Virus record (IMG/VR): IMGVR_UViG_3300005056_000002 | Coordinates: 1 to 64,000 of that record | DNA length: 64,000 bases | From: a virus | Strand: one strand, 5' to 3' | Part shown: one piece after another, positions 49,001 to 52,000 of the stretch | Layout of the letters: every line of letters starts with the position of its first letter | Position numbering within the stretch: the first letter of the stretch is position 1 | Position numbers and translations under genes: made by a program | Notes under the pieces: model-generated | The model's database searches: none | Seen by the model: only the letters and a program-made list of their open reading frames with translations | What the model was told of the DNA's origin: nothing

Positions 49001-52000
49001 CAAGATTTGAAGTCTAATTCTCCCGATAAGTATAAGACTGGGAGTTCAGTGTTGAAGAAACTAGGATTTGGATTTGAGGATGCACTAGTTAAGCACCTTA
49101 TAGATAATGGGGTTAAGTACAGTAAGAACCACCACGTGTTGTTACATATGTTGACTAGTAGTGATGGAGCTATCAAACTATACCTTAATAATTTAAAAGC
49201 TATTTCAGGTAAAGACGTGCAAGCTAATCACCCATTTGCTGATAATACTGCTTTAAAAGGGTTTGCTAGAGAGATAGGGAAATCATTTCCTACTTACTTT
49301 GCTAGTTCATTCAAGGATGTAAGAGGGCGTACTTACTTTGGTTATAGTTCTAACAAGTTCTTAACTGATAGAGTAAGAGAGTTGAAGAGTAATGAGTACT
49401 TATTAAGAAGATTACAGAAGCAGCCATTTACTGCTAACTCTTTATGGGGTAATGCTTTATTGAATGATTCTAAGTTTAAGAAGTACTTTGGTTACTTTAC
49501 TTATGATGGGACTACTACCGTAGGGAAAGAAGTAGGTAAGAAGCTAGAGCAAAGTTCTCCTGCTGAGGTAGAGCAAGCTAAAGTAGCTTTGTTCTTTAGT
49601 ATGAGAAAAGGTAGAGACTTTATCATTAGATTATTCTACCCTACTACTTCTAATAAGACTGTACAACCTGGTCTACAAGTATTAGGTAAAGATTGGGCAG
49701 ATGGTACTAACAATGGTCAACTAAGAAAGAACCAACAACATGAGTTGTTTGAAATTCTTGTTCAACCTGAGATTAATAGAATCCTAAGTATTCAAGATGA
49801 TGCTGACAAGCATAACATCAAAGGATATGAAGAAGGAGGAAGAATGTTTAACATGCTACCTGCTTTAAACAACGTTAAAGAGTTATGGGAAAAAGATGGT
49901 AAGTTAAAGACCAACATAAATTCTGATGCTAAATTAAAAGCTGTTGTTTTATCAGAGATTAGACAATATATAAATTCTGCTGTTAGTGATAAGCTAAGTA
50001 AGTGGGATTCTTATGGTTTAATTGAGACTAAGGAAGAGGTTCAAATGGTAGAAGGAGATAGAGTATGGATGGAGACTCCACGTGCTCTTATTGTTACAGG
50101 GAAAGACCCAAAAGCAGAAGCTTTCAACTTTGTAGTTAACTACTTGGTAGCTAATGTTAACATATATCAAACCTTTATTACTGACCCTGCTTTCTACTTT
50201 AAGTCTAAACAATGGAAGACAGTAGTTGCAAGAGAAGGAGTACAGGAAACAGTTAATACTAGACAAGGAGCTTTAAAGCATTATAACAAAGAAGACTGGT
50301 TACAAGAACACGAAGACATATTTAATAACATTGGTAAAAGGTTAGCTGCTGATGCTGCGCCAGGTACTGATCTACCTAATAGTGTTAATGATTCATTTGT
50401 ACTAGGTTATCTTAGAGATAGTGAGAGAGAAGTTTACCTAATGGAATACTATACTGCATTACTAGGAGCAGAAGGAGCTACAGATTATCTAGCAGCTAAT
50501 TCTACAGATGCGCAAGAGTTCACAACTCTTAGTGAACACCTACATGTACTAGTTTTACAGGGTAAGCTATCTACTGAGGATAAGGTTAGACTAGAAGGGC
50601 TTGAAATTAGCGGCTCTACGCTTTTGACTAAGGATATTGCTCAAATATTTCAGCCAGTAAAACCTGTGTATGTGGCGAATCATTGGAAGAATGATATTGA
50701 GCATAGAATCTATGTAAAATCGTCTAGTTTCCCATTAATCAAGCAGTTAACTCGTAATTTGGAGATTGATAAATTGCGTGTGGCGATGGTGGAGCAGAAA
50801 GTTGATAGGATAGCTTTCGAAAGTGCTGTTAAAGTAGGGGGAACTAACACAGGGACTCAAATCTATACAGACAATGAAGGTACAGTATCTAAATCTATTA
50901 AGATTGATACTATAGGTAGGTTATCAAGAGAAGGGTTTAAAATCCAACAGGAGATACCTTATGACGAGAACAAGCAATCTATCAATGATGGTACTCAACA
51001 GATTAAGTTGTTGACTGCTAACCTTAGAGACATCAAAGGATTTAAGGTAAGAGGTGATGATAGTAGTCATACAGGTCAAAGTATTCAAGACTTGTTAGAT
51101 AAGTCTTACAAGGCTATCTATGATGAACACTATACTAACCTAGTTGCTGATATTGAGTATGACGAGATTAACAACACACTTAATACTGATAAGCTTGCAG
51201 AGTTGCTAAGAAAAGAAGCTGTTACTAGAGGTTATCCTTTATATGACATAGCTGCTTTAGATACTTATGTTGACCAACATGGTGAAACTAAGTTTATAGT
51301 GCCTTTATGGTTGACAGGAGTTAGTGGTAAGTTAGAAGCTATGTTAAACTCTATCGTTGATAGTAGAGTTAGAAAGTTAAAGCCAAAAGGTAAGTCTTAT
51401 ACACTAGGAGCTAGTGAAGGTTTCAAACCTGTTAAACAAGGTAAAGATGCTCAGGACACTATTAACAATACTACAGGTATTGTATGGGATGCTGAATGGT
51501 TCGGAAGAACTGATGGTCAATTACAACCTATGCGTATTGAAGATGCTAACGGTAATGTAATGGGTAGTGAAGGATTTGATAAGGCTACAGGTTTTGTTAA
51601 GTATGCTGAAATCTTAGTTCCTTTTAAGTTCAAAGACGATAAAGGTAAGTTAGTGAAGGTTGAGGATTACACAAATGAAGATGGTACAATGGATATGACT
51701 AAGCTGTCTCCTGAGTTATTAAACATGTTTGGTTTCCGTATTCCTACACAGTACTTGAACTCTATGTCTGCTATTAAAGTAGTAGGGTTCTTACCTAAGT
51801 CTAGTGGAGACTTATTATTAGCACCTGCTGATTGGGCTGTTCAAATGGGTTCTGATTTTGATGCTGATAAATTATATAGTAATAGTTACAATACTAGCTT
51901 TGATTCTGAGACAGGTGCTTTAAGTATCTACGAGGGAGATAGCGTTATTAAGACTATGGAGAATCATATACTAGACTTACACTTTAGTATTATGGGTAAT

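Follow-up and report, generated by a model that had tools for sequence, protein, structure and literature searches.

A single gene for a 5151-aa protein closes the structural gene block of this virus, and it raises the question of what one polypeptide of that size does. A first-pass annotation, made from the letters alone, had seen in it a candidate virion-delivered, two-barrel RNA polymerase (RNAP) of the crAss-like kind. Analysis of the window, meaning the whole stretch of 64,000 nucleotides, indicates that the ORF very probably specifies a polyprotein built around the virion RNA polymerase of a divergent crAss-like phage, whose genome measures about 88 kb.

The locus and its phage

The giant ORF and its immediate surroundings comprise the following features:

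40268 to 43072, plus strand: 934-aa protein with an SLT domain at aa 810-917 (Pfam PF01464, E 4.8e-13)
43079 to 58534, plus strand: giant ORF of 5151 aa and 576.6 kDa with 0 internal stops, a fusion of g067-like, ART, g066-like RNAP and g065-like parts
58559 to 58595, no strand assigned: terminator-like hairpin with a 16-bp stem and flanking runs of A and T, bidirectional

Between the end of the 934-aa gene and the start of the giant ORF lie 6 nt, and the Pfam match bears out the annotated order of an SLT-containing protein followed directly by the giant gene. With its lytic transglycosylase domain at the C-terminus, the 934-aa product is, by context, probably an ejection or cargo protein. The hairpin separates convergent operons, and the genes downstream of the giant ORF run on the opposite strand. 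No tRNA genes were found within the window. When neighbouring proteins were tested against PHROG and Pfam, only terminase, portal, MCP, SLT, tail-fibre repeat and DNA ligase matched.

The large terminase (TerL), portal and MCP matched crAss-type PHROGs. In a tblastn search with TerL, the best 15 of 151 records listed were all crAss-like phages, and tallies of the matches by organism name and host were mostly crAss-like, Bacteroides and Flavobacterium phages. Identity of TerL to known crAss-like phages is about 30%. A blastn search in distant mode with positions 49000-53000 gave 0 matches among 50,697 phage records, since nucleotide divergence is too great. A protein identical to the 5151-aa product is also encoded on an 88,467-bp ENA metagenome scaffold. 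Together with the homology of the giant protein to gp66 of Cellulophaga phage phi14:2, the crAss-type TerL, portal and MCP uphold the crAss-like membership suggested earlier; the source is, judged by sequence, a divergent environmental crAss-like phage known only as a metagenome scaffold.

The RNA polymerase core

The polymerase module and its motifs lie as follows:

47960 to 54178, plus strand: gp66-like virion RNA polymerase module, aa ~1628-3700, placed by profile search, phmmer and gene boundaries in relatives
50804 to 50842, plus strand: strand of the first (beta-like) double-psi beta-barrel, DRIAFESAVKVGG, with the invariant K2585, placed by alignment to gp66 K1065
51728 to 51751, plus strand: FGFRIPTQ of the second (beta-prime-like) barrel, aligned to gp66 R1322-I-P1324
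51848 to 51877, plus strand: GSDFDADKLY, predicted catalytic metal-binding motif with D2926, D2928 and D2930, aligned to gp66 GSDFDIDKMY
51953 to 52564, plus strand: bridge-helix and trigger-loop aligned region, aa 2959-3162, placed by phmmer against gp66 1475-1673

Sequence searches connect this module to a single characterized enzyme. A phmmer search of PDB with aa 2301-3433 found 6VR4, the structure of phi14:2 gp66, at E 1.8e-27 and brought the catalytic motifs into register, pairing aa 2470-2938 with gp66 955-1373 and aa 2959-3162 with gp66 1475-1673. A profile search gave 6VR4 as its sole PDB match (E 1.4e-63), and a profile of aa 1625-2450 extended the homology to gp66 104-885 (E 9.8e-54). 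Identity of the core to gp66 is only about 20%. After aa 3200 the C-terminus of gp66 was undetectable, and a profile of aa 3201-3700 matched gp32 of Flavobacterium phage FpV4 instead. Neither Pfam nor the PDB sequences gave a match to an N4-like virion RNAP of the T7-type single-subunit fold.

Translation of positions 50801-51880 in frame 1 yields both strings quoted by the first-pass annotation, DRIAFESAVKVGG (aa 2576-2588) and MFGFRIPTQYLNSMSAIKVVGFLPKSSGDLLLAPADWAVQMGSDFDADKLYS (from aa 2883). The second reads as quoted, with its end in need of a small correction: closing in N, it covers aa 2883-2935 and not 2934. Its aspartates D2926, D2928 and D2930 align to gp66 D1361, D1363 and D1365, and all three, along with G2924, are 100% conserved in 128 family cores, so the proposed DFDAD triad is confirmed. 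Around it, the F is conserved in 97% and the K in 98% of 128 sequences, while position 4 of DFDxD is Ala in 2% of relatives and Val in 65%. The bare motif is no rarity (chance predicts about 0.09 occurrences in a protein of such length and composition), so that DFDxD alone is weak evidence; it rises above chance because the flanking region is homologous to 6VR4 with the motifs in register. As a side observation, a group I intron splits the catalytic-aspartate codons in relatives.

The remaining catalytic elements can be followed along the same alignment. In the second barrel, R2887 and P2889 are 100% and I2888 is 98% conserved (128 sequences). The lysine-bearing, beta-like barrel that had been suspected about 340 residues upstream is found there: K2585 corresponds to gp66 K1065, lies 341 residues before D2926, and is 100% conserved in 128 relatives (G2587, 99%); residues 134-136 of the structural model form its strand. 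In gp66, the connector spans residues 1095-1238, the bridge helix 1529-1559 and the trigger loop 1598-1636, and a cleft-blocking domain at 196-233 auto-inhibits the enzyme (10.1101/2020.03.07.982082). The alignment of aa 2470-2938 covers the connector (about 140 residues), which joins the barrels in one chain. Conserved residues in aa 2959-3162 are Y3016, G3027, K3028, G3032, V3100, D3101, N3112, N3114 and T3117, and the model places a long helix at its residues 564-594, or aa 3014-3044. The gp66 alignment begins at gp66 202, equal to aa 1770, so the protein has a region that may correspond to the cleft-blocking domain.

Structurally, the AF2 model of aa 2451-3200 agrees with these results. 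It was built on a 27-sequence alignment and reached pLDDT 78.7 and pTM 0.81; a run on a 10-sequence alignment (pLDDT 43) was discarded. Foldseek, the comparison with crAss-like virion RNAP structures proposed by the first-pass annotation, placed 6vr4_A first in PDB (E 3.7e-30, TM 0.72, 813 columns). Almost all matches at ranks 2-50 were largest subunits of multisubunit RNAPs, with weak but consistent matches to Rpb1, beta-prime, A190 and C160 (E 0.07-3 and TM ~0.1 for Rpb1 and beta-prime); QDE-1 had no entry among the best 50. Against BFVD there were 47 matches at E <= 1e-3. About one quarter of these are without a name, and the named ones are all crAss-like or uncultured phages or viruses, including gut crAss-like RNAP proteins.

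For gp66 itself, similarity to beta-prime and QDE-1 has been described as unseen by sequence and faint by structure (10.1101/2020.03.07.982082). Neither phmmer nor the profile search against PDB found a sequence-level match of the module to beta-prime or QDE-1. The proposed beta-prime-like barrel stands, its motifs aligning with gp66, and the direct resemblance to beta-prime or QDE-1 is absent by sequence and faint by structure, a kinship at superfamily level only. Homology in sequence and in the predicted model shows that the central ~2000 residues belong to the phi14:2 gp66 family, as an RNA polymerase with both barrels in a single chain. Reading of the raw sequence had rightly picked out a crAss-like virion RNA polymerase.

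Fused modules and their junctions

The rest of the chain divides into four regions around the polymerase:

43079 to 47497, plus strand: N-terminal, g067-like module, aa 1-1473, whose opening part is homologous to phi14:2 g067 by hhalign
47498 to 47959, plus strand: ART-PolyVal ADP-ribosyltransferase domain, aa 1474-1627 (Pfam PF18760, E 8.6e-13)
54179 to 54958, plus strand: zincin-like region, aa 3701-3960, with EEVIH at 3781-3785 (profile against g065 189-360, E 3.1e-16)
54959 to 58531, plus strand: C-terminal module, aa 3961-5151, with profile homology to the C-terminal part of g065 and to FpV4 gp33

A family profile of aa 1-480 aligned by hhalign to g067 with a probability of 98.1% (E 9.3e-14), pairing aa 72-375 with g067 63-397. 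When the N module was searched against phi14:2 g067 and FpV4 gp32 with phmmer and jackhmmer profiles, no match emerged, and hhalign gave only 2% probability against the gp32 N-terminus, which is unrelated. The N module is colinear with at least 11 cluster representatives of ~5000 aa, and its Gly-rich hydrophobic segment at aa 173-191 is the sole hydropathy peak >= 1.4. By the same measure, the C module has no convincing transmembrane helix. Profiles of aa 4701-5151 matched g065 972-1410 (E 6.6e-41) and gp33 965-1238 (E 1.2e-24), and one of aa 3961-4700 matched gp33 158-701 (E 7.4e-20). Gene ends in relatives fall at the same places: stand-alone RNAP genes begin at points projecting to aa ~1544-1625, and more than 20 relatives terminate where the projection is aa ~3954-3998. 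On these alignments the 5151-aa protein is a fusion of three adjacent phi14:2 virion proteins, g067, g066 and g065, together with an ART domain.

Its size, which had been regarded as unusual, is unremarkable. The RNAP family holds 5516 cluster representatives; in the 155 sequences examined for length, the median is 4052 aa and the maximum 7385 aa, and giant versions of 3400-7385 aa are common. RNAP genes of up to about 6000 aa appear in the published literature, and the RNAP and two neighbours are joined as one polyprotein in some phages (10.1101/2020.03.07.982082). The family is large and has been described before, and the 5151-aa protein is a typical member of it. Giant RNAP polyproteins are a recognised hallmark of crAss-like phages, and this further example brings the field little that is new. 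Of secondary interest are the junction ART domain, the clade-wide EExxH and the group I intron of relatives, which offer handles on polyprotein processing and on cargo besides the polymerase.

Scoring 49.7 bits in Pfam, where the cut-off is 31.2, the ART-PolyVal domain falls precisely on the boundary between the g067 and g066 parts, and in seven close relatives nothing is inserted there. Across relatives the junction is empty, holds ART-PolyVal (here and in at least four others) or holds a PD-(D/E)XK nuclease, and larger relatives carry a RecD/PIF1-like helicase after the zincin-like region. ART domain searches gave 0 matches against PDB sequences and, by tblastn against phages, two weak matches only, both to unrelated jumbo phages. 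In databases, the label of at least one RNAP protein from a gut crAss-like phage refers to an ART-PolyVal-like domain. The family's active site consists of a His in strand 1, a Tyr in strand 2 and an Asp in strand 5 (PMC5512222). H1498 and D1582 are kept in six related ART copies, while the presumed strand-2 aromatic position is W1526/F1527; activity is uncertain because Trp or Phe replaces the Tyr of the family description.

A tentative reading of this pattern, which we hold to be possible and somewhat doubtful, is that the polyprotein junctions are exchangeable slots for host-directed effectors and that the ART ADP-ribosylates a host target, plausibly RNAP. If so, the ART would be delivered strictly 1:1 with the polymerase as the phage enzyme begins early transcription, and the arrangement would be a convergent copy of the N4-like set of ART, RNAP and zincin. 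The literature searched contained no experimental or comparative account of junctions as slots.

The zincin-like region is homologous to g065 and also matches the C-terminus of FpV4 gp32 (BLAST, E 1.3e-16), although it lacks the canonical HExxH metal-binding motif. Among 43 aligned relatives, 20 have EExxH or EGxxH and 23 have HExxH, and the change to EExxH spans the whole clade. EExxH could still bind metal. The domain that carries this change has been suggested to process the polymerase or to activate it, and cleavage of the polyprotein was judged likely by Drobysheva et al. (10.1101/2020.03.07.982082).

Proposed mechanism and comparison with known systems

The preferred mechanism follows phi14:2 and crAss001. 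Phage phi14:2 packages gp66 in its virion, the enzyme synthesises RNA with every Asp of DFDID essential, and early transcription is rifampicin-resistant; its early promoters have no common motif known (10.1101/2020.03.07.982082). By analogy, the polyprotein would be made late alongside the structural genes, packed in the capsid as cargo, and passed through the tail partly unfolded, before or with the DNA. Refolding in the cytoplasm would follow, of the intact chain or of pieces cut at module junctions. Mg-dependent, rifampicin-resistant synthesis would transcribe the early genes, with host RNAP taking the middle and late genes. The co-delivered ART may ADP-ribosylate a host target, like T4 Alt and the ARTs of other polyvalent virion proteins.

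The main rival concerns the state of the chain after entry. The polyprotein may stay uncleaved, with the N and C modules building or anchoring an envelope-spanning ejection device to which the RNAP is tethered, a reading that we rate short of an even chance and still worth serious weight. The fusion is kept, colinear over the N module, in at least 11 cluster representatives of ~5000 aa, and the proposed processing protease lacks its first His throughout the clade; Thermus phage P23-45, whose RNAP is fused to the tape measure, and the N4 ejectosome offer precedents (10.1101/2022.12.01.518664, PMC13434306). However, phi14:2 and many relatives encode these modules in genes of their own, divided at constant points, so that the modules can work as separate chains; the judgement of Drobysheva et al. 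favours cleavage, and EExxH may yet bind metal.

Two other rivals question the activity of the module. It could be catalytically dead and serve a structural or ejection role while host RNAP transcribes the early genes, for which the unusual Ala at DFDxD position 4 (2%) might speak; but every invariant active-site residue of the family is present, conservation extends to the stretches that align with the bridge helix and trigger loop, and the family prototype, gp66, is an active enzyme (10.1101/2020.03.07.982082), all of which make such a loss very improbable. Equally slight is the prospect that its main activity is RNA-dependent or primer-synthesising, as in QDE-1, and not DNA-dependent transcription of early genes. 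In structure gp66 comes nearest to QDE-1, and in vitro it favours templates that are single-stranded or denatured (10.1101/2020.03.07.982082), yet QDE-1 is missing from the best 50 PDB matches of the AF2 model.

Compared with phi14:2, the 5151-aa protein shares the two-barrel core, DFDxD, the invariant Lys, the connector and the bridge-helix and trigger-loop regions of gp66 (6VR4), the partners g067 and g065, and a place closing the structural and cargo gene block. The two differ in that phi14:2 uses three genes (1797 + 2180 + 1421 aa) and here there is a single ORF, and in that phi14:2 has DFDID and the zincin motif HEIMH where this protein has DFDAD and EEVIH. Phi14:2 also lacks an ART; the g067 C-terminus gives at most a GNAT-like signal (E 0.069), below threshold.

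The closest cultured relative of the RNAP module is FpV4 gp32 (4287 aa; profile E 1e-133), which by tblastn is 26% identical across 95% of the core and whose counterpart of the module is gp32 1759-4006. In gp32 an N-terminal part, the RNAP and a zincin-like domain are already fused, and gp33 (1596 aa) matches the C module. Unlike the present protein, FpV4 uses two genes, has HEVIH and no ART, and the first ~1750 aa of gp32 are unlike the N module. Both FpV4 proteins are annotated merely as virion structural or hypothetical proteins. In crAss001, gp47, gp49 and gp50 are large RNAP-associated proteins found by virion mass spectrometry, for which partly unfolded ejection has been proposed (PMC10172136); they are separate polypeptides of a gut Bacteroides phage, and the likeness is by description.

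More distant systems share parts of the design. N4-like polyvalent proteins have the same accessory set, a giant chain with a packaged RNAP, a zincin-like domain and ART-PolyVal, and Roseovarius Plymouth podovirus 1 carries ART, an N4-type RNAP and a zincin-like MPTase in one protein (PMC5512222). With ART, zincin-like and RNAP domains in one chain and a presumed place in the virion, the 5151-aa protein is, as judged from its domains, a polyvalent protein too. However, the N4-like polymerase has an unrelated T7-like single-subunit fold in place of the two double-psi beta-barrels here, and the common architecture is convergent. Multisubunit beta/beta-prime and QDE-1 likewise have two barrels, with DxDxD on one and Lys on the other. 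Unlike those enzymes, the 5151-aa protein holds both barrels in a single chain, most of which has no counterpart there.

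Polymerase core and active site

The giant protein is encoded by a single 5151-codon ORF (43079-58534, plus strand) with no internal stops, and an identical protein was found on an 88,467-bp ENA metagenome scaffold. For 50801-51880, the first-pass annotation had proposed a virion-delivered two-barrel RNA polymerase (RNAP) with a DFDAD triad. Translation reproduces the text it quoted there; the sequence of its barrel peptide stands, while the last residue is 2935 rather than 2934. Three segments of the translation carry the relevant motifs:

aa 2576-2588, plus strand: DRIAFESAVKVGG, lysine segment of the beta-like barrel
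aa 2884-2891, plus strand: FGFRIPTQ
aa 2924-2933, plus strand: GSDFDADKLY, catalytic motif

Taken alone, the DFDxD motif is little proof, since about 0.09 chance occurrences are expected in a protein of the same size and composition. When aa 2301-3433 were compared by phmmer with the full set of PDB sequences, a single real match emerged, 6VR4 chain A (E 1.8e-27), in two stretches covering gp66 955-1373 and 1475-1673 in native numbering. GSDFDADKLY aligns on GSDFDIDKMY, FGFRIPTQ on IGYRIPNQ, and ESAVKVGG on LDGVKVGA. With a profile built from the query and nine homologues, the E-value improved to 1.4e-63 and no other PDB entry matched. Chain A, titled "DNA-dependent RNA polymerase", is gp66, a virion protein of Cellulophaga phage phi14:2 whose RNA synthesis is Mg-dependent and is lost when any Asp in 1361-DFDID-1365 is replaced by Ala; rifampicin-resistant early transcription of phi14:2 is attributed to it (bioRxiv 10.1101/2020.03.07.982082). 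The gp66 connector (1095-1238), DFDID motif (1361-1365), bridge helix (1529-1559) and trigger loop (1598-1636) all fall within the aligned stretches.

Structure prediction by AlphaFold agrees with this assignment. The model of aa 2451-3200, built from a 27-sequence alignment, reached a pLDDT of 78.7 and a pTM of 0.81; another, from a 10-sequence alignment, was discarded at a pLDDT of 43. The RNAP fold, for which a structure search had been suggested as a test, is recovered by Foldseek: 6vr4_A is the sole PDB match under 1e-3 (E 3.7e-30, probability 1.00, TM 0.72, 813 columns). At ranks 2-50 (E 0.07-3), nearly every entry is either the largest subunit of a multisubunit RNAP or a non-virion phage RNAP, comprising Rpb1, beta-prime, A190, C160 and the enzymes of phages AR9 and PhiKZ. 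Against BFVD there were 47 matches under 1e-3, about a quarter of them unnamed, and all named ones come from crAss-like or uncultured phages or viruses.

Across the aligned cores of 128 family members, K2585 (gp66 K1065), R2887, P2889, G2924, D2926, D2928 and D2930 are invariant, and G2587, I2888, F2927 and K2931 are 97-99% conserved. The guess that DRIAFESAVKVGG carries the beta-like barrel lysine proved correct, because K2585 is one of these invariant residues. Position 4 of DFDxD (aa 2929, 51857-51859) varies: the window protein has Ala, found in 2% of the 128, where Val accounts for 65% and gp66 has Ile. An unusual and inactive conformation of the gp66 motif has been tied to this position (bioRxiv 10.1101/2020.03.07.982082). 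Homology shows a complete and conserved two-barrel polymerase active site in a crAss-like virion-protein context.

The catalytic motif is also a site of gene interruption. In six relatives (P0002, P0003, P0004, P0011, P0037, P0124), the RNAP ORF breaks off exactly within DFDxD. At one such locus (ENA ERZ28657087 scaffold_174, 8872-9158), ...VQMGSD ends one ORF and M-FDVDKLY opens the next about 260 nt later, with a complete group I intron in the gap (Rfam RF00028, 94.1 bits, E 4.7e-25). The interruption site corresponds to window 51854-51862, and the window gene itself is unbroken.

Phage identity and gene context

PHROG searches of the window matched the terminase large subunit (E 1.2e-98), portal (8.9e-79) and major head protein (4e-86). 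TerL is about 30% identical to its tblastn matches in 151 phage records, of which the 15 listed are crAss-like phages; tallied by organism name and host, the 151 are mostly gut crAss, Bacteroides and Flavobacterium phages. As first described, the giant ORF closes the operon and follows an SLT protein, the domain lying in the 934-aa protein upstream. Most other structural-block proteins tested had no family match (PHROG, Pfam or both). Further features of the region are:

24209-25312, plus strand: 367-aa protein, phage tail-fibre repeat (PF22337, E 9.2e-12)
58559-58595: strong hairpin (16-bp stem, an A run on one flank and a T run on the other) between the giant ORF end and convergent minus-strand genes; likely a bidirectional terminator
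61288-62616, minus strand: 442-aa protein of the convergent block, ATP-dependent DNA ligase domain (Pfam E 2e-8)

Together, the gp66 homology, the 6vr4_A fold match and the crAss-like TerL bear out the reading as a crAss-like virion RNAP. By analogy with phi14:2 and crAss001, the protein would be expressed late, packaged as capsid cargo and ejected through the tail as a partly unfolded chain; once refolded, it would carry out early, rifampicin-resistant transcription.

Module architecture and family

In phi14:2, the RNAP gene g066 (2180 aa) lies between g067 (1797 aa), which encodes a virion protein, and g065 (1421 aa), annotated "RNA polymerase associated protein". Whereas these are separate genes, the window joins all three in one chain. 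The family profile of aa 1-480 aligns on g067 63-397 (hhalign probability 98.1%, E 9.3e-14), and by profile aa 1625-2450 match gp66 104-885 (E 9.8e-54), the zincin-like region at aa 3701-3960 matches g065 189-360 (E 3.1e-16), and the C module at aa 4701-5151 matches g065 972-1410 (E 6.6e-41). The N-module part aligned to g067 includes the Gly/Ala-rich VTAFAAVGFATGGANLAAL (aa 173-191, window 43595-43651), the sole strongly hydrophobic segment of the giant protein, which may be a membrane-active element.

The closest cultured relatives, Flavobacterium psychrophilum phages, divide the chain differently: FpV4 gp32 (4287 aa) covers aa 1764-3938, and gp33 (1596 aa), the next gene, covers the C module. 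Projecting relatives' termini on the window protein reveals two natural boundaries, one at aa ~1544-1625, where stand-alone RNAP genes start, and one at aa ~3954-3998, where more than 20 relatives end. Searched exhaustively with a profile, the family yields 5516 cluster representatives (E <= 0.001). The giant size had seemed noteworthy, but neither size nor fusion is new: among 155 sequences (the best 150 of the 5516 plus the first nine homologues), the median length is 4052 aa and the maximum 7385, and no fewer than 11 representatives, each about 5000 aa long, run colinear with the window protein along the N module. Published work likewise describes phages in which the RNAP and the two proteins beside it form one polyprotein (bioRxiv 10.1101/2020.03.07.982082), as well as RNAP genes of up to about 6000 aa. 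The protein therefore adds one member to a large, already described family.

The zincin motif reads EEVIH (aa 3781-3785, window 54419-54433). HExxH is retained in 23 of 43 aligned relatives; because the other 20 share Glu at position 1, the change from His is a conserved clade-wide variant rather than random decay. Relatives of 5680-7385 aa carry, in the alignment consensus, a RecD/PIF1-like SF1 helicase module after this region (Walker A GxAGTGKT, DEASM, QLPPV, HKSQGSTY), a module absent from the window protein. On scaffold_174 the helicase is a separate 817-aa gene (12381-14834; Pfam AAA_30 and PIF1 matches), and "DNA helicase" names occur among the BFVD matches of the RNAP model.

An ART-PolyVal domain (PF18760, aa 1496-1611, E 8.6e-13, over the Pfam cut-off) sits exactly at the g067/g066 junction. 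This junction (window 47498-47959) is a variable slot: seven close relatives join the N and RNAP modules directly, five more carry ART there (P0041, P0075, P0092, P0099 and P0149, by a profile from these copies; Pfam confirms P0041, P0099 and P0149), P0074 has a PD-(D/E)XK nuclease, and further relatives have unassigned inserts of 200-680 aa. ART lies at the C-terminus in P0048, and cr116_1, a gut crAss-like structural match to the RNAP model, is named "ART-PolyVal-like domain-containing protein" in UniProt. In phi14:2 g067 (10908-16301 of its locus), a faint GNAT acetyltransferase signal near the C-terminus (aa 1591-1645, Pfam E 0.069, under threshold) occupies the position equivalent to ART.

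ART-PolyVal, with an H-Y-D active site, is the commonest protein-modifying domain in virion "polyvalent proteins" (Iyer et al. 2017, PMC5512222). In the window protein H1498 and D1582 are conserved, whereas the aromatic position holds W1526/F1527. The domain was first seen fused with an N4-type vRNAP and a zincin-like domain (Iyer et al. 2017, PMC5512222), a fusion that shares the accessory set of the window protein, although its polymerase fold is unrelated.
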